This document shows positions 4,886-43,031 of a stretch of DNA of 64,000 nt, piece by piece (position 1 is the first letter of the stretch; each line of letters begins with the position of its first letter). The notes under the pieces are model-generated. The model had not been told where the DNA came from. It was given only the letters and a program-made list of their open reading frames with translations, and made no database searches. The stretch is taken from assembly GCA_963682135.1 (NCBI GenBank), contig OY821645.1:1120001-1184000 (forward strand), read 5' to 3'. The DNA is from Methanothrix sp. (GTDB taxonomy: Archaea; Halobacteriota; Methanosarcinia; Methanotrichales; Methanotrichaceae). Both the position numbers and the translations under genes were made by a program.

Positions 4886-6490
4886 ATGCCAGATGCAGAT
4901 GACTATTTCGGGCCCAAAGCAGTCTACGACCACTTCATGAAGATAACAACCCTAAAACATCCCTCTCGTGATGAAGCCCATCCGGAAGAAGGCAATGAAG
5001 ATGAAGTGCGCCAGTATGTGGCAGATTGCGCCAACAAGATCGAAAATATTGAGACGCCCATTTTTTACGAAGCTAATGCAACGGATGCCGGCAAAAGGGT
5101 TATTGTTGTTCGCAGGAAGGGGTCGGGACAATATTCTGCGGCTCCATATGTCACCCTCCAGGCACACATGGATATGGTCTGTTTCCCCAAAAATGATATC
5201 TTTCCATTAAATGTTTTTGACTTTGAGATCAAGAAGGAGAATGGGGAGAATGGGGAGAAATGGATAAAGGCTGGAGACAAGGATAGCATCAGCAATCCAA
5301 AAAAGGGCACCACTCTGGGAGCGGATGACGGCATCGGCGTTGCAACCGCCCTGGCGCTGCTGGAGGATGAAACGCTAAAAGAGTACCCTCTGGAGTGCTT
5401 CTTCACCGTCCAGGAAGAGAATGACATGGGCGGAGCAGAGCACTTCGATAAGGCTCTGCTTCATGGCCGAAAATACATCAACCTCGATGCTGAGGATATA
5501 AAGACCATACTCTATGGCTGCGCAGGCGGTTGCGACTTCTCATTTTCGGGAACCGTTGAGCGGTCGGATATGGTGAATGATTTTGTTGCTCTGAAGGTCT
5601 CGATTTCAGGCCTTCGTGGCGGGCATTCAGGCGTCAACATCAATAATGGTAGGCTCAATGCCATTAAAGGTATAACGGAAATCCTCATTAACCTCAATGA
5701 GCGAATTGTTAATCGAGATGTTGGAGATATCGCCGGTTACGAACTGCGCCTTATTTCGATGGAAAGAGATGAGCAGACCAAGATGAATTCCATCCCCAGC
5801 AGTGCTAGTGCTGTGGTTGCCATCGCGAAGGATAAAAAGGAGAGTTTTGAGAATAATTTTGCTGCTCAATGCAATGCATTAAAAGCGCTTTATCAGCCTG
5901 AAGAGGATAAATTCAGCTGGCAGGTCTGCTGGCAGGGAGATGATCAGGCAAAGCCGCTGAGCAAGATCTCGACTGATGCGCTTCTTTGTCTGCTCAGCCG
6001 GATACCTCACGGCGTCATTCGAATGATACCGCAAAAGGATAACGCGAGCCTGGTCGAGACATCGAGCAACCTGGCGGGAATTGAGATTGGCAATGAGGCT
6101 GCTATCATCAAAGGATCAAACCGCAGCTCCAATGATGCTAATATGAAGGCTCTCAAGAATGTCCAAATTAACATAGCCAATTGCTTCGATTATTCAGTGA
6201 AATATACCGATGGGTATCCAGCCTGGCAGCCGAACGAAAAATCCGAGCTGCTTGCAATAGCCAAAGATGTTTATGGGAGCAAATATCCTGGATATAACGC
6301 GACTGTGATCCATGCCGGCCTGGAATGCAGCCAGGTAGTAGCCAAGTACGGCAGCGAGATAGATTGCATCTCCATCGGTCCCACCATAGTCGATCCCCAC
6401 TCGGGTGGCGAACGTCTCAAGACGTCAACCGTAGAGCAATTCTATGATGCGGTAGGGCAAATTCTTCATAAGATTTTCGAGAAGAAGTAG
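4886..6490 (+). CDS. pepD: Aminoacyl-histidine dipeptidase (peptidase M20C)
   Basis: LQAHMDMV, TTLGADDGIG, FTVQEE, GGHSG, IHAGLEC and HS.GE motifs. Confidence 0.9.
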   Translation: MPDADDYFGPKAVYDHFMKITTLKHPSRDEAHPEEGNEDEVRQYVADCANKIENIETPIFYEANATDAGKRVIVVRRKGSGQYSAAPYVTLQAHMDMVCFPKNDIFPLNVFDFEIKKENGENGEKWIKAGDKDSISNPKKGTTLGADDGIGVATALALLEDETLKEYPLECFFTVQEENDMGGAEHFDKALLHGRKYINLDAEDIKTILYGCAGGCDFSFSGTVERSDMVNDFVALKVSISGLRGGHSGVNINNGRLNAIKGITEILINLNERIVNRDVGDIAGYELRLISMERDEQTKMNSIPSSASAVVAIAKDKKESFENNFAAQCNALKALYQPEEDKFSWQVCWQGDDQAKPLSKISTDALLCLLSRIPHGVIRMIPQKDNASLVETSSNLAGIEIGNEAAIIKGSNRSSNDANMKALKNVQINIANCFDYSVKYTDGYPAWQPNEKSELLAIAKDVYGSKYPGYNATVIHAGLECSQVVAKYGSEIDCISIGPTIVDPHSGGERLKTSTVEQFYDAVGQILHKIFEKK

Positions 6491-6644
6491 CAAGGAAACG
6501 GCTGAGGATAATAATCGCCCTCAGCCCATTTCATGCAGGCCGATTAGCTCCATTAAAAACGAAGTAAGATCTCTGAATCAACTGGCTGGCGTATCGCAAT
6601 CCTGGCATTTGAGCGGATGAAGCCGGGCGCAAATAGCGATTGGG

Positions 6645-6818
6645 CTAGGAAGGAAGAAAACCTGCACATTGATAACAGGCCCCATTATTATATTGATCGC
6701 ACATCCCATAATAAGGAATTGGGCCAGCGGGTTTGTTATACTTGCACAAAGTAAGCACCATCTCTTCATCCGATTGTCTCACAACGACTGTCAATTCGGG
6801 TTTTATCCATGATTTCAT
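6645..6818 (-). CDS. Putative RiPP precursor peptide (W-x-K-P-E-L leader, Cys-rich core), 57 aa
   Basis: MKSWIKPELTVVVRQSDEEMVLTLCK-YNKPAGPIPYYGMCDQYNNGACYQCAGFLPS; GAGGT RBS-like site upstream of ATG 6818. Confidence 0.6.
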   Translation of the reverse strand: MKSWIKPELTVVVRQSDEEMVLTLCKYNKPAGPIPYYGMCDQYNNGACYQCAGFLPS

Positions 6819-6908
6819 CAGAATAACCTCTATCAAAGTGCAAATTGTGTGGCAAAACAGGAAATAAAAATGCAAGGAACTTGATGAGGCCCTTTTCCTT
6901 GCAATTAA

Positions 6909-6981
6909 CGCCCGGACCGGGATTCGAACCCGGGTCGAAAGCTCGACAGGCTTTCATGATGGGCCACTACACCATCCGGAC
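6909..6981 (-). tRNA. tRNA-Asp(GTC)
   Basis: AAAGC-CT-GTC-GA-GCTTT anticodon arm, GGTTCGAATCC T arm. Confidence 0.95.
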
Positions 6982-6991
6982 AGTTTTCAGA

Positions 6992-7099
6992 TCCCGCCTC
7001 CCAGATTCGAACCGGGGACATCGCGGTGACTGCGCGTAGCACCTCTACGGTGCGAGACATACTACAGCCGCGCACTCTACCAGGCTGAGTTAAGGCGGG
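6992..7099 (-). tRNA. tRNA-Tyr(GTA) with 34-nt intron at 37/38 (7028-7061)
   Basis: C1-G72 archaeal Tyr acceptor stem; CGCGG-CT-GTA-G [intron] A-CCGCG. Confidence 0.93.
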
Positions 7100-7220
7100 C
7101 CTCTCGCTACCAGGTTATTCCTTGTACTTAAGCCCTTCGACACTAACTTCCACAAAAGGCTTTTTGGAGGGTGGCAGCCGATGGCAAAATATAATTATGG
7201 GATGCGATTTTGGGAGGAGC

Positions 7221-7754
7221 TTGATGCTCATAGGAATTATGTCCGATGCCCATGACAGTATCCAAGGCGTCAAGGATGCTCTGCGGGTTTTTTCTTCCAG
7301 GAAAGTGGATCTGGTGCTCTTTGCCGGCGACATGATCGGCTCGGGTAACTGCTATACCTTCGAAGGCTTTGGCATTCCCCTCAAGCTGGTCTACGGAAAT
7401 AACGACGGAGACCGCGTCGGCCTGGCCCGCGAGTTTGCTCGCGTGGGCGGCGAGTACCTGGGCGACTTTGGGGAGATCGAGGCGGGCGGCCTGAAGATAG
7501 CACTCATGCACGGCACCGAGGAGCCGGTGGTAAAGGCCGTGGTAGCCTCTCAGCTCTATGATGTCGTGGTCCGCGGACATAACCATCGTGCTGAAGCGAC
7601 AAGGCACGAGAGGACGCTCCTGATCAACCCCGGCGAGATCTGGGGCCACTTCACCGGCCTCTCCAGCATCGCCATCCTGGACACCGCCCGCCTGGCTGTG
7701 GAGATGATCGAGCTGGGCCGCCACAAGACCTTCCGCGAGATCATCAAGGAATGA
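7221..7754 (+). CDS. YfcE/MJ0936-family metallophosphoesterase
   Basis: SDAHD, AGD, GNND, HG, GHNH and NPG motifs; GGAGG before 7221. Confidence 0.9.
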   Translation: MMLIGIMSDAHDSIQGVKDALRVFSSRKVDLVLFAGDMIGSGNCYTFEGFGIPLKLVYGNNDGDRVGLAREFARVGGEYLGDFGEIEAGGLKIALMHGTEEPVVKAVVASQLYDVVVRGHNHRAEATRHERTLLINPGEIWGHFTGLSSIAILDTARLAVEMIELGRHKTFREIIKE

Positions 7755-7760
7755 TAGTCT

Positions 7761-36325: not shown

Positions 36326-36399
36326 GGGCCCGTGGTCTAGCTGGTTATGACGTCGCCTTGACATGGCGGAGGTCATGCGTTCGAATCGCGTCGGGCCCA
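36326..36399 (+). tRNA. tRNA-Val(GAC)
   Basis: TCGCC-TT-GAC-AT-GGCGG anticodon arm; TTTATA box upstream. Confidence 0.95.
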
Positions 36400-36404
36400 C
36401 TTGA

Positions 36405-36477
<73 letters not shown>

Positions 36478-36486
36478 TGTATTTTT

Positions 36487-36660
36487 ATGAAGTTTATTTT
36501 CCAAACAGATACTGCCCTTTTTTTGGCGGAGGTATTCGGGGTCGGGCTCTCGGAAGTTGATGAGATGATCCTGAGTCGCTTTGAATTTGAATTTGAAGCT
36601 GAGGAGATGAGATCCAAAGAGAGTGGATTATGGCCTCAAGAGCTGTGGGTGGGGAGGTGA
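36487..36660 (+). pseudogene. Remnant paralog of the 41129-41395 ORF
   Basis: LAEVFGVGLSEVDEMI...SKESGLWP versus LAEVFGVGLPEVDEMI...SKESGVWP. Confidence 0.6.
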
Positions 36661-36785
36661 TTCCTCATTTCCAGAACCGCCACCATCCCTTTCCTGATCT
36701 CTTCCTCGACCGACTTCAGGGCAAACTGAGACCGCCTAGATTGAATCCTATGCATTTGCAGAAGGGTAAGATATTTTGCAGTTGA

Positions 36786-37124
<339 letters not shown>

Positions 37125-37359
37125 CCTATTAAATATTAAAATATCTATTCGTAATGATAATATTATTGTCTCACGAATTCTCTGATTTTGCTTTTCTTTC
37201 CGGCTCCGCAGGGATCGGGTACAGATCTATATATCTTGTCTCCATATCTCTTCAATTCAATCTGCTTCTTTCCTTCTTGCCGTGGTTTGGCAAGTATCAA
37301 GAGGATACGATGACGCGGAGACTGTGGATGGCTTGACATTTCCAGACTGTTGCCGCCTT

Positions 37360-38649
37360 TTATCTCATATATTTCTTAGCAAAGGTGGCAATAAAACCTG
37401 CCCACAAAAATGTTCCTACTATCGTCTCTGCCATTGCCACATATGTGTACAAATCAGATGTTGTCTTATAACCTGTAGTTCCTGGATTAATGATGGCGGC
37501 GATATATCCTGGAGCAATGGCAGTGACAAAGCTAATTTTAATACAGTCTAATAAACCTGCAGCAAATTCGTTAGCTCCGATTATTCGGACTATCCCTTCC
37601 CAATGCCAGAAAAAGAGGCCAAAAGCTAGTACTATTGCACCCCAGGAGATCATGAGCCTCTTTGGATGTACGCCATATCCGAAGATTCCTTGGATGAAGA
37701 TCCATTCAAATCCATCATACCAGAGATATCTCCATAGGGATCTTGGGAGAGACCTCCTGATAGGCCATACTTCAGTCTTCAGACAATCAACCAAGCTAAG
37801 CGGTGAATCCCATCTGATCCCTCTGATACCTTTCTGTATCCGCTTTGCCTCCATCTCCCGATAGAAGTGATATTCCTCCCCATCTCTGTCGCCTGCCCTT
37901 GCCAATACGTTCTTTGCCGTTCTGCACGCATCTTCTTGAGATTCCGCAAGGTTGAATACAGCCTTTCGGAATGTCACATGATTTCCTTCAAATCTGACTC
38001 CGCCAAAGGGGCCGAAGTAAGCATGGCCGTTTAACCTGGCTTCCATGAAAGAAGCATCCTGGCTGAATGTGGCTCCACTGAAGATGGTAAGCTCCATGAA
38101 CGTGGCTTTGGTGAAGCTGGCATTCTCGCTGAACTTGACATTTTTGAAGCTAACACTACTGCTGAATATGGCTTCCCTGAAGAAGGCATAACTGTTGAAC
38201 ATGGCTTTCTCAAATAAGGCAGGCCCTCTGAATGTGACCCCATTGAAAGAGGCATTATCGCCGCTGAATGTAGCTCCGTTGAAGTAAGCATTCTCGCTGA
38301 ACGCGGCTTTGTCGAAGAAGGCATTTCTGCTGAACATAGTTCCGCTGAAGTCGATTTTTTTTTGGAACAGGCATTTAATAAAATTGACATTTCTATCGAA
38401 CTTCGAATTTGTGATCGTTATCGAAGAGGATACAATTCTATATTTGGCGGGTTCATTTCTTATGTACTCGCCATCTGATTCGGCCATCAAGAATTTTCTA
38501 ACATAAAAATTATCATATGTAGGCGCAATGTCAAAGTTGCCTAGTACCCTAATGTGATCATAGTTGGCAGGCTCGCCTTTCTGGATCTTGTCTAATATCT
38601 CGCTGGCGGGAATTTCCGTTAGCTCTTTTAAGCAATTTTCTTCTGTCAT
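37360..38649 (-). CDS. Pentapeptide-repeat membrane protein
   Basis: Repeated A.F..A.F units; YHFYREMEAKR; GYGVHPKRL followed by TM helices. Confidence 0.88.
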   Translation of the reverse strand: MTEENCLKELTEIPASEILDKIQKGEPANYDHIRVLGNFDIAPTYDNFYVRKFLMAESDGEYIRNEPAKYRIVSSSITITNSKFDRNVNFIKCLFQKKIDFSGTMFSRNAFFDKAAFSENAYFNGATFSGDNASFNGVTFRGPALFEKAMFNSYAFFREAIFSSSVSFKNVKFSENASFTKATFMELTIFSGATFSQDASFMEARLNGHAYFGPFGGVRFEGNHVTFRKAVFNLAESQEDACRTAKNVLARAGDRDGEEYHFYREMEAKRIQKGIRGIRWDSPLSLVDCLKTEVWPIRRSLPRSLWRYLWYDGFEWIFIQGIFGYGVHPKRLMISWGAIVLAFGLFFWHWEGIVRIIGANEFAAGLLDCIKISFVTAIAPGYIAAIINPGTTGYKTTSDLYTYVAMAETIVGTFLWAGFIATFAKKYMR

Positions 38650-39177
38650 CAGCCATCACCGCTACCAGCTCTTAGCCTTGGCCTATTCCTGTGATGTGGT
38701 AATGATAGCTGAATGGTGCTTTGGGTGTGCTGCACACCTGGCCACGATTCATAGCCTCATTCCCCGCTTTATACAATCCTAATCACCTCATCAGTCAGCC
38801 CGCAAAGCTCGTAAACCAGGGTGTCTATCTGGCGGTCGGTGGCCTCGATCTGGCGCGGGATGGCAGTCTGCTCGTGGGGCGTGCGGGCCTCTTGGAGCTG
38901 CTTGTGGAGAGGGAGCATCAGATCCACTTGGGTTTCATTGTAATAGCCGGATCTGTCGGAATCCCTATTGCACTCAAACCTTTCCACAAGGTCTGCTATC
39001 TCTTTAGGTGACGCCAATTCTCTGCTCCTCCACGCAGTTATTCCCTGTTCAGGCGAAAAAGCTTGCGGAGGATTTTGAGATATTTCAATCTCGTCCTTTC
39101 GTAATCCTTATAGCCTAGCAGCAAGCAGTCTCTACCATGGCTGGAGCAAGTGAAAAAGTCATCATCCAGGATGCCAA
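38650..39177. repeat. ~530-bp diverged direct repeat, copy A
   Basis: Colinear with 42320-42851, e.g. shared ttattccctgttcaggcgaaaaagcttgcggagga and cagcaagcagtctcta. Confidence 0.9.
38769..39017 (-). pseudogene. Internally deleted type IIG R-M enzyme (N-terminus fused to C-terminus)
   Basis: PKEIADLVERFE.N...YNETQV joined to DLML.LHKQL...RQIEATDRQID.LVYEL.GLTDE.IRIV. Confidence 0.7.
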
Positions 39178-39295
39178 CGATGCCGCCCTGAAGAAATTTG
39201 AGGCGGGCCTCGCCAGGAGCATAAAACAGTATAAAGCTGGTGAAGTGGAAGCCTTTGATGACAAAGATGAGTTTATAAGAACTCTTATCGAGTAA
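39137..39295 (+). CDS. Putative antitoxin, 52 aa
   Basis: MAGASEKVIIQDANDAALKKFEAGLARSIKQYKAGEVEAFDDKDEFIRTLIE; TAATG overlap with the toxin. Confidence 0.7.
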   Translation: MAGASEKVIIQDANDAALKKFEAGLARSIKQYKAGEVEAFDDKDEFIRTLIE

Positions 39296-39543
39296 TGATA
39301 TATCACAATCACCGCACTCGGGAATTTAAAGAGAACTTCCAAAAGCTTACTCAAAAAAACAAAGCACTTGAAGTCAGGCTCGTTAAAAAGATCCTTCAGA
39401 TTCTCGATAATCCTTCGATCGGTGCTCCAAAAAGCCATAAACTGAGACATGCTCGCGGCTCGCATGTAGATCCTTATGTTATCGTTTATGGGATAAAGGA
39501 AGAAAGAATTCAATTTCTCCAATTGTGGAATTGCTATCTGTGA
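39295..39543 (+). CDS. RelE/ParE-superfamily toxin (C-terminus possibly truncated)
   Basis: TREFKENFQKL...ILDNPSIG...LRHARGSHVDPYVIVYGI. Confidence 0.75.
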   Translation: MIYHNHRTREFKENFQKLTQKNKALEVRLVKKILQILDNPSIGAPKSHKLRHARGSHVDPYVIVYGIKEERIQFLQLWNCYL

Positions 39544-39572
39544 ACTCTTTGAAATCAGATTGCTCAGAGCGA

Positions 39573-40007
39573 TTAGTCTGGTTTGGACAGTAACCAACCA
39601 TTGGCAGGTGTTTCGCTACCTTCAACAACTTTGATATAGCTGGGTTGTGGGTGGTTCTGAGCATCGACACAAATAGGCGAATTCTCTAATGAGTAATTCG
39701 CTATTCTGTTCAACTCATCCTCTCCAAGCATTTGCTCTATTATGCAATTATTCAAGCTCTCAAACGCCTCTACAAACATGGAATCGTCATTGATCGCATA
39801 GTAGTTGGCATTGCCGTGCCTGCTTGTAAGTTTCAGCACGTTCCATTTGATGAGCTTTTTTGTCACAGAGACCATGGTTTGGCGAGATATGCCTGTGCCG
39901 CGGGCAAGCTCGCTTACATTGAATTCCAGCCCCCGCAAAGGCAAGAGAAATTGAATTGCCCTTAGTTCGCTGGTGTCCCCCAACAGTCCTTCAAATGGTG
40001 CAGCCAT
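39573..40007 (-). CDS. Winged-helix DNA-binding protein
   Basis: FNVSELARGTGISRQT HTH; YYAIN wing. Confidence 0.8.
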   Translation of the reverse strand: MAAPFEGLLGDTSELRAIQFLLPLRGLEFNVSELARGTGISRQTMVSVTKKLIKWNVLKLTSRHGNANYYAINDDSMFVEAFESLNNCIIEQMLGEDELNRIANYSLENSPICVDAQNHPQPSYIKVVEGSETPANGWLLSKPD

Positions 40008-40079
40008 AGATCCTCCGATAATTAATCTTAATCTTACCTCATACTATTTAGTGATTTTGACATCGATGTCAACTTAGAT

Positions 40080-40382
40080 TTACAACTTATGAACTCTTCT
40101 CGTTAGTATTCTACCCTCAGTTGCATTATATCCATGTTGATTTAATGCATGACAAGCCATAGGTAGATCTGAGATGTAATATTTGGTATCCTTCTTTGGC
40201 ATCGGCGCAATATAGCCTTTTCTTTGGAGCCCCCTCGCGGTATCTTCAGGATCTTTGTTGAACTTGGCTCTAAACTGCTTGGCGATCTGCCCTAAATTGA
40301 AGCTTCTATTACTCCTTACGCATCGGTTCATATATAATACGTTGAGAATGAATAGCTCATCCGTCTCCAGGGTACAAACCAT
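40080..40382 (-). CDS. Hypothetical basic protein (possible winged helix)
   Basis: ~100-aa ORF, GGAGG RBS, LQRKGYI...KYYI. Confidence 0.55.
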   Translation of the reverse strand: MVCTLETDELFILNVLYMNRCVRSNRSFNLGQIAKQFRAKFNKDPEDTARGLQRKGYIAPMPKKDTKYYISDLPMACHALNQHGYNATEGRILTRRVHKL

Positions 40383-40484
40383 CCCTCCAACACCTACCAC
40401 ATCATCATAAATAAGTTTTGATGGGGAAAAGGCTTTGGGTATCGCCGAAAAAGCTGTTGAAATTAATACAAGGTATATCCTGCT

Positions 40485-40740
40485 TATTATTCCCAAACTG
40501 CGGTATGCACGCCAAATAGCCTCTTCTAGCCCCTTGAAGTCTATGTGGTCTTAGACGTCTATCGCTTCCCGCTTGAATCCAGCGAAGCGCCTGGATAAAT
40601 TCGCTCCTCGTCCCCCGAGCCTCAGACGAGTTGTGAACCAGTGATTGCAACAATGAGGACTGAAGAATCCCTCCATCCGCTCCGAATCGGGATTATGCAG
40701 GCTCACACGCGCTGCCACAGCCGTGACCGCCTTATAAGAT
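40485..40740 (-). pseudogene. Tyrosine recombinase/integrase C-terminal relic
   Basis: Across two frames: LHNPDSERME.FFSPHCC.HWFTT.LR, SEFIQALR, REAIDV*DHID, YLACIPQFG; frameshifts and a stop at the expected catalytic Tyr. Confidence 0.75.
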
Positions 40741-40743
40741 AGA

Positions 40744-40872
40744 TCAAATTCCTTCTTCCCGGCAGAACTCATCAAAGTCCATGTACTTGTCTTTCTCTTT
40801 GAGGAAACGCCTGTATTCCGCATCGGCATATTCTTCATCAGCAAGCACTTCGTTGGCAATTTCTGTTGCCAT
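40744..40872 (-). CDS. Small acidic antitoxin-like protein, 42 aa
   Basis: MATEIANEVLADEEYADAEYRRFLKEKDKYMDFDEFCREEGI. Confidence 0.5.
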   Translation of the reverse strand: MATEIANEVLADEEYADAEYRRFLKEKDKYMDFDEFCREEGI

Positions 40873-41128
40873 ATTTAATTCGCCGCCCTCTTTCCTTCTT
40901 CTTTCGGGATTCTCCATGTATTTCTGAGCCTGAAGAGATATCGCTATTTTGAATGCCACAAGACCACCACTCTCTCAAACCCTTTTTGTATTTCTGCTTC
41001 TTGACGTTTTCGCCAATCAGCTCATCTTCTCATTTGTATCTTGTTTATACTTTCTAATGTGTAAATATGTTTTATTGATATTGTTTTCCGGCCAAACTAC
41101 TTAACCTTACACGTAGAATCTGCTCTTC

Positions 41129-41395
41129 ATGGCAGGAGTCCTTGAGCAGCCATTCAGGCCGCAGAAAAGAGCCGTGGAGCATTGCCCAACCGAAATGAGC
41201 CAGAAGGCCCAGGAGCTGGAGGCGGCCAGGGAGATTCTGGCGGAGGTCTTCGGGGTCGGGCTCCCGGAGGTGGATGAGATGATCCGGGGCCGGCTAGAGG
41301 CTGAAGGCTCAAAAGAAAGTGGGGTGTGGCCGAGGAATTCTCACAAGAATAGTGCTTATTTCCAAAATTGCCACCAATGCTTGACCTCTTCGTAG
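41129..41395 (+). CDS. Hypothetical protein (LAEVFG family)
   Basis: 88-aa ORF; paralogous remnant at 36487. Confidence 0.55.
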   Translation: MAGVLEQPFRPQKRAVEHCPTEMSQKAQELEAAREILAEVFGVGLPEVDEMIRGRLEAEGSKESGVWPRNSHKNSAYFQNCHQCLTSS

Positions 41396-41829
41396 ATTTC
41401 CCTGCATCTTATACCATTGATACTTCTTTTATCTCTGTATTCAGTAAGTTCTTTAAATCTTTTTTTTGATTTGGAATTATCATAAAAGTAAACCAGAACA
41501 ATCAGCGTCAGTAATCCCAAGAAAATTGGCGTCGTACCTCTGGGCATATCTGGCACTTCAAGGATCAAGAAAATCCATATGCAAGCTTCAAAGAAAACAA
41601 ATGCATAAACATCAGTCAATCCTATATTTTGATTTTTATCTTCCAAATATATTGCGCATTATAGGTGATTGCATTCGTTTTGCTTCTTAGGCCTCTTCTT
41701 CCATTCCATGCCGCATTTTGTGACGAATTTTTTGAAATAACCATATTCTCCGCGGGGAGTCCAATCTTCTCCGCATGAGGTCCTGTATTCTTTTATCTCT
41801 CCATTTTCTGTCTGTAGTCGGACTACCAT
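41356..41829 (-). pseudogene. Two-TM membrane protein paralog with one in-frame TAA (41659-41661)
   Basis: MVVRLQTENGEIKEY...CGMEW...CNHL*CAIYL...WWQFWK, colinear with 41843-42307. Confidence 0.8.
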
Positions 41830-41842
41830 CCTTGTATCCTCC

Positions 41843-42307
41843 TTACCGCCAGAATTGCCACCAGTGTTTAGCCTTCGTTCCTTCCTGATCTTCAGAGATT
41901 TGGGTAGCCTTGATACCGTTGATTGTGCTCTTGTCTTGGTATTCGGTTAGATTTTTGAATTGTCTTATCGCACGGATTTCCCAGATTAAAAAGGCAAATG
42001 CCGCTAGAGTATAGAATCCTGATAACATAAGATAAAACTCTTGTCGTTCAAATCCAAATAGAATTAGCATGATTGCTGCAAACGTAATAAAAATCATAAA
42101 TATCACGAGCCCATGTTTCTTATTTTTTTCTGCTAAATATATTGCACAATCCAAATGATTGCATTCTTCATTTTGCTTGGGCTTATTTTTCCATTCAATT
42201 CCACATTTAGAAACGTATTTTTCAATAGGATAGTCTCCGCCGCCTATAATCTCTACGGTCTCGTATTCCTTGATTTTTCCTTCTGCAGTCTGTAATCGCA
42301 CCACCAT
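41843..42307 (-). CDS. Two-TM membrane protein with Cys/His N-domain and WWQFWR tail
   Basis: 154 aa; GGAG RBS; C..CNH.DC pattern; two hydrophobic helices. Confidence 0.75.
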   Translation of the reverse strand: MVVRLQTAEGKIKEYETVEIIGGGDYPIEKYVSKCGIEWKNKPKQNEECNHLDCAIYLAEKNKKHGLVIFMIFITFAAIMLILFGFERQEFYLMLSGFYTLAAFAFLIWEIRAIRQFKNLTEYQDKSTINGIKATQISEDQEGTKAKHWWQFWR

Positions 42308-42319
42308 TCTTTGCTCTCC

Positions 42320-42851
42320 TTATTTCCAGAACCGCCACCAGCCCTTTCTCTTGGCCTCCTCCTGGCTAGGTGGCAATGATAACGGGCTGATGCTTTGGGT
42401 GAGCTGCGCCACCTGGCCGCTATTCATGGCCTCATTTCCCTCCCTTCCACAATCCTGATCTCCTCTTTCGTCAGCCCGCAAAGCTCGTAGACCAGGACGT
42501 CTATCTGGCGATCGGTGGCCTCAATCTGGCGCGGGAGGGCGGTCTGCTTGTGAGGCATGCGGGCCACTTGGAGCTGCTTGTTAAGAGTAAGCATCTGATC
42601 CACCTTGGACTTTGTTTTAATGGCCGGATTTGTGGGACTCCTTATTGTTTTCAAACCTTTCCATAAGGTCCGCTATCTCTTCGTGTGCCGCCAATTCTCT
42701 GCTTCTCCATGCAATTATTCCCTGTTCAGGCGAAAAAGCTTGCGGAGGAAATTGAGACATTTCAATCTCGCCTTTTGTAATCCTCATAGCCTAACAGCAA
42801 GCAGTCTCTATCATGTCCGGAGCCACAGAGAGTGCAGCTATCCAAGATGCT
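42320..42851. repeat. ~530-bp diverged direct repeat, copy B (WWRFWK stub, deleted R-M stub, spacer, antitoxin 5' end)
   Basis: Colinear with 38650-39177. Confidence 0.9.
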
Positions 42852-43031
42852 ACAATCGGCGGGCACAGAAAGCTCCACTTGGAGACTCCCTCTCGTTCTA
42901 TTACACCGGCCATAGCAAACTGTATATATAATCATGATAGATCAGAGCCAGTCGGAGGGAAAGGCTATTAGTGCATCACCCACCATTCTAAGAAAGCCCG
43001 GCCGAAGACACCTGTCCTGGCCGATGGAGCT

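Follow-up and report, generated by a model that had tools for sequence, protein, structure and literature searches.

Behind the tRNA-Asp gene of a Methanothrix sp. genome lies a short open reading frame (ORF) whose product resembles the precursor of a RiPP-type modified peptide. The locus raises the question of whether this ORF is a genuine precursor gene and, if so, which enzymes would act on its product.

The ORF and its reading frame

The window (the whole stretch of DNA that was analyzed, 64,000 nt in length) was translated, and a minus-strand ORF encoding 57 amino acids plus a stop codon was found at 6645-6818. The features of the locus, in window coordinates, are as follows.

6645..6818, minus strand: RiPP-type precursor gene, 57 aa, sole copy in the genome (family profile, 84.7 bits, E 1.6e-23)
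6747..6818, minus strand: leader, residues 1-24 (column conservation; putative boundary before C25-K26)
6792..6809, minus strand: WxxPxL motif, a type described in PMC13381572 to which free RRE/PqqD proteins bind (182 of 186 peptides, partly by construction of the search pattern)
6648..6746, minus strand: core, residues 25-57, with C25, G32-P33, C40, C48, C51, and S57 (family alignment)
6826..6830, minus strand: GAGGT, a ribosome-binding-like word, present also before the nearest relative in G364
4886-6490, plus strand: PepD-like M20 dipeptidase gene, convergent with the precursor gene
6491..6902, no strand: variable spacer from the PepD-like dipeptidase gene to tRNA-Asp (unrelated DNA without the peptide gene in G010 and G379)
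6908..6982, minus strand: tRNA-Asp(gtc), upstream neighbour and likely insertion landmark (tRNA scan)
6992..7099, minus strand: tRNA-Tyr(gta), which contains a 34-nt intron and was not picked up by the default tRNA scan

The GAGGT word is 7 nt from the ATG, and S57, six residues past the last Cys, is the C-terminal residue of the peptide. A sequence-only reading of this DNA had described a W-x-K-P-x-L leader start, an EE-x-VL-x-x-CK junction, and a C-x7-C-x2-C core, and these were located at residues 4-9, at residues 18-26, and at C40/C48/C51, respectively. The tRNA-Asp(gtc) gene that it had placed next to the ORF is on the same strand, 89 nt upstream. It had also stated that no radical SAM/SPASM or PqqD gene lies in the window, and the window indeed contained no ORF with the radical SAM motif CxxxCxxC and no match to PF05402.

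A profile built without the window's peptide and its nearest relative gave the window's peptide 55-57 bits; the next-best ORF of the genome scored 14.5 bits (70,425 six-frame ORFs), and the best of 70,425 shuffled ORFs scored 18.9 bits. With the single peptide as query, no match was obtained in a word-indexed protein search or in scans of viral and metagenome contigs, and a search of 41 relatives returned only the peptide itself below E 0.1; homologs were recovered only by HMMER over all representatives and by profiles. The ORF is short, no Pfam or NCBIfam family covers it or the other precursors, its exact sequence was not found in the protein collection, and it is absent in 56 of 58 congeners, all of which could suggest a chance frame in an intergenic spacer; however, the probability of this is negligible, as it is refuted by the profile scores (55-57 bits, with no shuffled ORF above 18.9) and by the 69%-identical copy in the congener G364, with a dN/dS of 0.34.

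The site and its tRNA neighbours

Some stretch of window 6300-7760 is matched in every one of the 58 congeners, and among the matches listed the ORF was matched in G364 only. The dipeptidase gene and tRNA-Asp also lie next to each other in G010 and G379. The nearest relative is the copy in G364, a genome of the same genus in which the maturation cassette is present. It is 69% identical at the amino acid level and 78% identical over 199 nt, and it sits about 950 nt behind a tRNA-Val/tRNA-Phe pair, beside a second precursor. The tRNA-Val/tRNA-Phe pair of the host genome (G000), at window 36326-36477, is without a precursor. The location of the G364 copy behind another tRNA pair indicates that the small gene moved from one tRNA site to another, separately from the cassette.

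Several further observations concern the surrounding DNA. The region behind tRNA-Val/tRNA-Phe (window 36500-43000) is variable and contains numerous short ORFs, fragments of genes, and a repeat protein of 429 aa; synteny with G364 breaks at window 36484. A similar ORF of 70-90 aa is repeated behind tRNA-Phe (window 36448-36660 and 41129-41395, and L142:10111-10338, beside the G364 precursors). An element of about 1,370 bp at G000:C1:1910501-1911876, probably an insertion sequence, has six near-identical copies elsewhere in the genome. In run X5, about half of the depth leaves the ORF at window 6695 and joins an unrelated gene midway along its length, at G000:1912480; this branch was taken for a chimera or a rearrangement. 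A stem-loop behind tRNA-Asp was rejected as a terminator, as it was no better than shuffles (z 0.11), and a sigma-70 promoter scan was set aside as inapplicable to archaea.

The precursor family

HMMER over 1.84 billion representatives gave 49 matches at E <= 0.001, 45 of which were peptides of 55-94 residues; the four long matches (P0003, P0012, P0018, and P0036) were excluded as repeat or composition matches. W4, P7, E19, C25, K26, C40, and C51 were invariant columns in the homolog alignment, the family leader was WxxPxLxVxxRxxxEExVLxxCK, and each peptide carried three to four Cys. These short homologs support the earlier proposal that the peptide is a RiPP-type precursor whose leader is of the RRE type and whose Cys core varies, and the profile search that the same reading had suggested found a large family in which the leader is kept and the core varies.

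The leader DNA pattern was found in at least 131 genome stretches among GTDB genomes, across many bacterial phyla. The matches listed came mostly from uncultured Desulfobacterota, Chloroflexota, Acidobacteriota, Actinomycetota, Omnitrophota, Aminicenantes, and Chlorobiaceae, with two from Methanotrichaceae, and among them the family is mainly bacterial, not archaeal. The leader residues were fixed by the DNA pattern, so that leader conservation in that set arises by construction; core positions lay outside the search pattern. Among 186 aligned peptides, C40 was conserved in 98%, C51 in 97%, C48 in 69%, and S57 in 87%. The terminal residue was Ser in 164 of 187 complete peptides and Thr in 9, and 51 of 578 neighbouring genes ended in Ser. 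For 156 of 178 peptides, the last Cys stood six residues before the C-terminal one, a spacing that the window's peptide fits. The residue before the core Cys was small (A, G, T, V, or S) in 141 family peptides; in the window's peptide it is Leu, as in 5.

Arrays of precursors were also seen: G316 held 11 matches and two cassettes (L145 and L148), G364 held 8 matches (L143), and about a dozen copies surrounded one cassette on the Dehalococcoidia contig L076. All named homologs were annotated "hypothetical protein", and three unnamed bacterial clusters of the Atlas, at 0.90-0.91, serve as a lead only. A description of the family was not found in the literature searched; most subscription journals were outside this scope, and radical-SAM RiPP atlases or supplements may list its clusters. 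The accessible text of PMC10288494 and PMC12710340 held nothing relevant to the family.

The usual gene cassette in relatives

The cassette of relatives consists of three radical SAM/SPASM paralogs (about 397, 381, and 650 aa), a free PqqD/RRE protein, an S24/S26 peptidase that is stand-alone or fused to GNAT, an NTP_transf_5 protein, and an MsbA-like ABC exporter. The 650-aa radical SAM enzyme ends in a 300-aa HprK-like kinase domain, often a separate gene, which has an HxAG..GHSxAGKST..DD pattern and weak matches to ScmC, HprK-related kinase B, and HPr kinase. The SPASM-type motif CxxCx5CxxC was present in 40/40, 44/44, and 26/27 members of the three radical SAM families, and GxSMxP and HR were kept in 33/33 members of the main peptidase groups. 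For the marker radical SAM enzyme, AlphaFold gave a model of low quality (pLDDT 54.8).

Variants of the cassette were also seen. In one peptidase type (L027:5102-6052 and four similar proteins), GxCMxP was present in 5/5, with Cys for the catalytic Ser, and there was no HR motif. Two further genomes of the host's class, G245 (L170:2513-9628) and G280 (L171:4487-9030), carry a simpler related cassette in which a single radical SAM gene accompanies PqqD, kinase, S24/S26 peptidase, and nucleotidyltransferase; that of G245 also includes an exporter and a precursor of 50 aa whose last residue is Ser, and in G280 no precursor was recognised. Beside the cassette of G359 (L149:4109-6377) lie two additional radical SAM genes, and beside that of G364 (L143:14288-16505) lie an FAD-dependent oxidoreductase and a 361-aa protein without a Pfam match, in both cases for possible further tailoring.

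We distinguished 122 precursor loci, and the 33 with at least 12 kb of DNA were used for neighbourhood counts. The sequence-only reading had asked whether homologs sit beside rSAM/SPASM and PqqD genes, and they do: radical SAM genes were found at 25 and PqqD genes at 26 of these 33 distinct loci. Of the parts that lay beyond the view of a sequence-only reading, the kinase was found at 25, the peptidase at 22, and the nucleotidyltransferase at 18; the exporter was found at 15. At least one cassette gene was present at 26 loci and none at 7. A further set of 10 genomes was picked because the precursor lies apart from any cassette gene (the 7 empty loci and 3 shorter loci). When these genomes were searched in full, 10/10 had both the marker enzyme, with E no higher than 1.1e-170, and a minimum of three family matches. 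The data showed that a precursor far from the cassette is normal for this family in cassette-bearing genomes.

The marker enzyme was present in 18/18 other precursor-bearing genomes tested. Among 392 genomes of the host's class, the peptide was found in 9 and the marker enzyme (E < 1e-169) in 8, the same 8; the host genome is the exception. These genomes are kin rather than independent samples. Within the genus the cassette is patchy (2 of 58 other genomes). In a quick tree of 40 marker enzymes, the archaeal members fell into three supported groups, and one origin is possible; on the basis of this quick tree we claim no donor or direction.

Absence of the cassette from the host genome

The host genome is a single contig of 3.04 Mb and is 99.87% complete. 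The profiles of the three radical SAM families gave at best 97, 80, and 88 bits on its ORFs, compared with 502, 255, and 754 bits for their weakest members (in-sample values). The peptidase and nucleotidyltransferase profiles had no match among its ORFs, the PqqD profile reached at best 13 bits and the kinase profile 25 bits, and the exporter profile reached 245 bits, compared with 632 bits for the weakest member. Cassette genes used as tblastn queries against the genome revealed no fragments; the best identities were 23-34%, to other radical SAM and ABC genes. PF14907 and TIGR04249 were not found in this genome either.

The sequence-only reading had reasoned that any maturation would take place in trans and had suggested looking for a maturase elsewhere in the genome. 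That search returned no cassette orthologue: the three radical SAM enzymes, PqqD, kinase, S24/S26 peptidase, nucleotidyltransferase, and exporter all had no orthologue in G000. Maturation in trans is thus unsupported, as a 99.87%-complete genome holds no orthologue of any cassette gene. A plasmid or an unassembled element of the strain could hold the cassette.

In G364, G359, and G316, the cassette sits in a nucleotide-sugar/glycosyltransferase locus, which the host genome has without the cassette. The flanks of the G316 cassette match the host genome up to 1299764 and from 1299925, and those of the G364 cassette match it at 1293745 and 1293741. Loss of the cassette from the host genome and separate gains in G364, G359, and G316 both fit these data.

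Another radical SAM/RRE system of the host might mature the peptide in trans, either the cluster at 2302517-2313050 or the SPASM enzyme at 1197028-1198206. The genome does have SPASM-type enzymes, and it has one RRE, the sole PF05402 match (23.5 bits), which is fused to a metalloprotease in this separate cluster (G000:2302517-2313050); the cluster thus offers an RRE-M50 protease, a SPASM enzyme, and four B12-type radical SAM enzymes. However, the resident enzymes scored at most 35 bits on the family profiles or fell outside the top matches, the cluster carries a small precursor of its own that belongs to another type (about 2306400-2306650), and the family kinase, S24/S26 peptidase, and nucleotidyltransferase were all missing from G000, which makes maturation by a resident system improbable. 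As an observation in its own right, the cluster G000:C1:2302517-2313050 combines the RRE-metalloprotease fusion and a single SPASM enzyme with four radical SAM genes (products of about 515-535 aa), a small precursor, and what we take to be a MinD-like gene.

Comparison with known systems

One of the nearest known systems is that of the linear polyphosphorylated peptides (LPP), which are made by LppA/K/B/S/D/N of Bacillota (Popov et al. 2026, PMC13381572). Judged against the accessible text of that paper, both systems have a free RRE, an archaeal-type signal peptidase, an HprK-like kinase, an uncharacterised NTP transferase, plus an MsbA-like exporter (on our side in the cassettes of relatives, not in G000), as well as a [Y/W]xxPx[L/V] leader, one or several precursors whose tails vary, and clusters that often lie in polysaccharide loci. 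In contrast, LPP is a linear product made without a cross-linking enzyme, and "radical" and "rSAM" occur 0 times in the main text of PMC13381572 as available, whereas the family cassette adds three radical SAM/SPASM paralogs. The LPP consensus given there, YxxPxVLxHQxIxFETxxS, was matched by 0 of 186 family peptides, which have Trp for Tyr, invariant Cys, and a terminal Ser. LPP come from Bacillota, whereas the family comes from anaerobes of many phyla and from methanogens.

The phosphorylated lasso peptides (paeninodin with PadeK; pseudomycoidin with PsmK and PsmN), as far as the accessible text of PMC6993621 describes them, share with the family a WxxP leader, a free RRE, a terminal Ser, an HprK-type kinase (P-loop and DD motif), an NTP-transferase family protein, and an ABC exporter. 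However, the family has a Cys-rich core and radical SAM enzymes, and neither a lasso cyclase nor a B2 protease was seen. That the window's gene encodes a lasso-peptide precursor is very improbable: the leader motif is common to paeninodin-type precursors, and 2 and 1 of 46 family members weakly match lasso precursor models (E 0.0012 and 0.012), but this reading is contradicted by the gene neighbourhoods, which hold radical SAM enzymes instead; neither an asparagine-synthetase-like cyclase nor a transglutaminase-like B2 was seen in the cassette families or in 42 of 63 other listed ORFs scanned at seven archaeal loci.

The SynChlorMet system (TIGR04248-TIGR04251: ScmD, ScmC, ScmE, and ScmF) likewise has several radical SAM/SPASM genes, PqqD, and a ScmC-like P-loop protein, and ScmC was the best NCBIfam match of the kinase domain in 4/4 proteins tested. 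However, all scores were far below the cut-offs (ScmE at most 92/400, ScmF 100/400, ScmC 43/125, and ScmD 28/100), and SynChlorMet has two radical SAM enzymes, whereas the family cassette has three. The sactipeptide and ranthipeptide systems (StsB, AlbA, and PapB) resemble the family, not G000, in the action of radical SAM/SPASM enzymes and an RRE on Cys-containing substrates. Their models also scored far below cut-offs (StsB 95/625, AlbA 66/850, and PapB 53/340), and the family differs in that the RRE is a separate protein and that a kinase, an S24/S26 peptidase, and a nucleotidyltransferase are added. Thioether chemistry of the radical SAM/SPASM type occurs in methanogens, as described for CrpC in the accessible text of PMC13692751; unlike the short family precursors, the CrpC substrate is a large protein (TIGR04463).

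We place the family outside the LPP, lasso, SynChlorMet, and StsB/AlbA/PapB groups because the LPP consensus fails in all 186 peptides, no lasso cyclase was seen, and the model scores are far below cut-off. By analogy, it would be like LPP and the phosphorylated lasso peptides in recruitment, phosphorylation, and cleavage, and like the sactipeptides and ranthipeptides in cross-linking, while being a member of none of these groups.

Proposed pathway in cassette-bearing genomes

In genomes with the cassette, the free PqqD protein would bind the WxxPxL leader. A folding model of a G364 PqqD with the window's peptide gave weak support for this binding: it scored 0.48, compared with 0.01 for the best control, with contacts agreeing at 55% or more and a partner pLDDT of 44. 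Of 78 solved pairs, 51 reached the folding mark, as did 2 of 108 mismatched ones, and passes at or below 0.60 included only 5 of the 78 solved pairs but all 4 mismatches that passed. RRE-leader complexes have solved structures. In view of these structures and the low score range, the PqqD model shows likeness only.

The radical SAM enzymes may well cross-link core cysteines as thioethers, with somewhat better than even prospects, and other radical chemistry is possible. The basis for this analogy is given by the sacti- and ranthipeptides, in which radical SAM/SPASM enzymes form thioether links at Cys. The kinase would probably phosphorylate the terminal Ser, as PadeK and PsmK do according to the accessible text of PMC6993621. 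The nucleotidyltransferase could, at slightly less than even prospects, build on the terminal-Ser phosphate, for which the PsmN-dependent addition of a hexose described in the same text is a precedent. The accessible text of PMC13381572 counts against the terminal-Ser reading, as the residue on which the LPP kinase acts is core Ser3 rather than a terminal Ser, and no effect was seen for the nucleotidyltransferase. An S24/S26 enzyme would quite probably cut off the leader, less certainly near VLxx/CK, by analogy with LppS, which with its RRE removes the leader in LPP (PMC13381572, accessible text). The ABC transporter would then export the product. Export, often from a polysaccharide locus, leads us to speculate on a role at the cell surface or in competition.

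Selection or drift of the window's copy

The start, stop, ribosome-binding word, all four Cys, and terminal Ser of the window's gene are intact. Comparison with the G364 copy gave 14 synonymous and 23 non-synonymous differences, so that the dN/dS of 0.34 rests on few sites. In an environmental contig from run X6, 6 of 6 indels lay in the 243 nt of spacer and 0 in the 174-nt ORF, a pattern with a chance probability of about 0.04. For the same run, 7 ORF substitutions were listed (27 of 28 differences being listed), all in codons 29-37 and 0 in the leader; the changes comprised K29L, A31T, I34T, and two silent codons. Run X7 had a similar set of substitutions plus Y49H among the differences listed, and run X5 had the identical sequence. 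The pattern in X6 and X7 could reflect selection that is still acting, or selection in cassette-bearing lineages.

Three leader residues of the window's peptide are rare or absent elsewhere in the family. V12 occurs in 10 of 184 other peptides, with Leu in 157; Q15 occurs in 0 of 184 and L24 in 4 of 184. The G364 sister has the common residue at positions 12, 15, and 24. The summed log2 ratio of the window's peptide was -13.9, which ranked it 163 of 186.

Many archaeal relatives have, by eye, an AT-rich box 50-60 nt upstream. The BRE/TATA pattern had no match upstream of the window's gene, which is a weak test. RNA run X17 covers only 6903-7165, that is, the tRNAs, and is uninformative on the ORF.

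Discussion

We conclude that the window's gene is a member of a widespread precursor family and probably a stranded copy. It would be a satellite precursor of the kind that is kept away from the cassette in cassette-bearing genomes, either left behind the tRNA after loss of the cassette or carried in without it. As no cognate enzyme for any step was found in G000, the peptide, if made, most likely stays unmodified. The copy would thus be unmatured in this strain and probably starting to drift.

The main alternative is that the copy is still selected, either because the cassette comes and goes among strains of the species and, where it is present, matures this satellite precursor, or because the unmodified four-Cys peptide is useful itself, for example as a metal or disulfide peptide or as a decoy for the family's machinery or target. 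The intact frame, Cys, and terminal Ser and the dN/dS of 0.34 are in its favour, as are the indels that avoid the ORF, the substitutions that cluster in the variable core of related populations, and the patchy cassette (2 of 58 other genomes of the genus), which occupies sites that are empty in G000. However, G000 alone among the 19 tested precursor-bearing genomes lacks the marker enzyme, three leader positions depart from the family, and the upstream BRE/TATA test, weak as it is, gave no match, so we regard continued selection as possible but unlikely.

A broader proposal, which we put forward tentatively and think rather unlikely to hold as a whole, is that the family represents a RiPP class not yet described, found in anaerobic bacteria and in methanogens. 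Its three diverged radical SAM enzymes would each act on a different invariant Cys within the same short core, and the kinase and nucleotidyltransferase would cap the terminal Ser. Its precursor genes would move alone between tRNA sites, which would leave a methanogen population with a stock of variants, the window's gene included, that are matured only in cells acquiring the mobile cassette.

Returning to the reading of a probably stranded copy, what is new here is the archaeal distribution of the family and the orphan status of this gene. The locus points to a large family in which the recently described LPP toolkit is combined with three radical SAM/SPASM enzymes and which extends to the methanogens, in 8 of 392 genomes of the class and with up to 11 precursors in one genome. 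A lone precursor is no proof of maturation in trans; the window's copy illustrates cleanly how a precursor gene can outlive or outrun its machinery.
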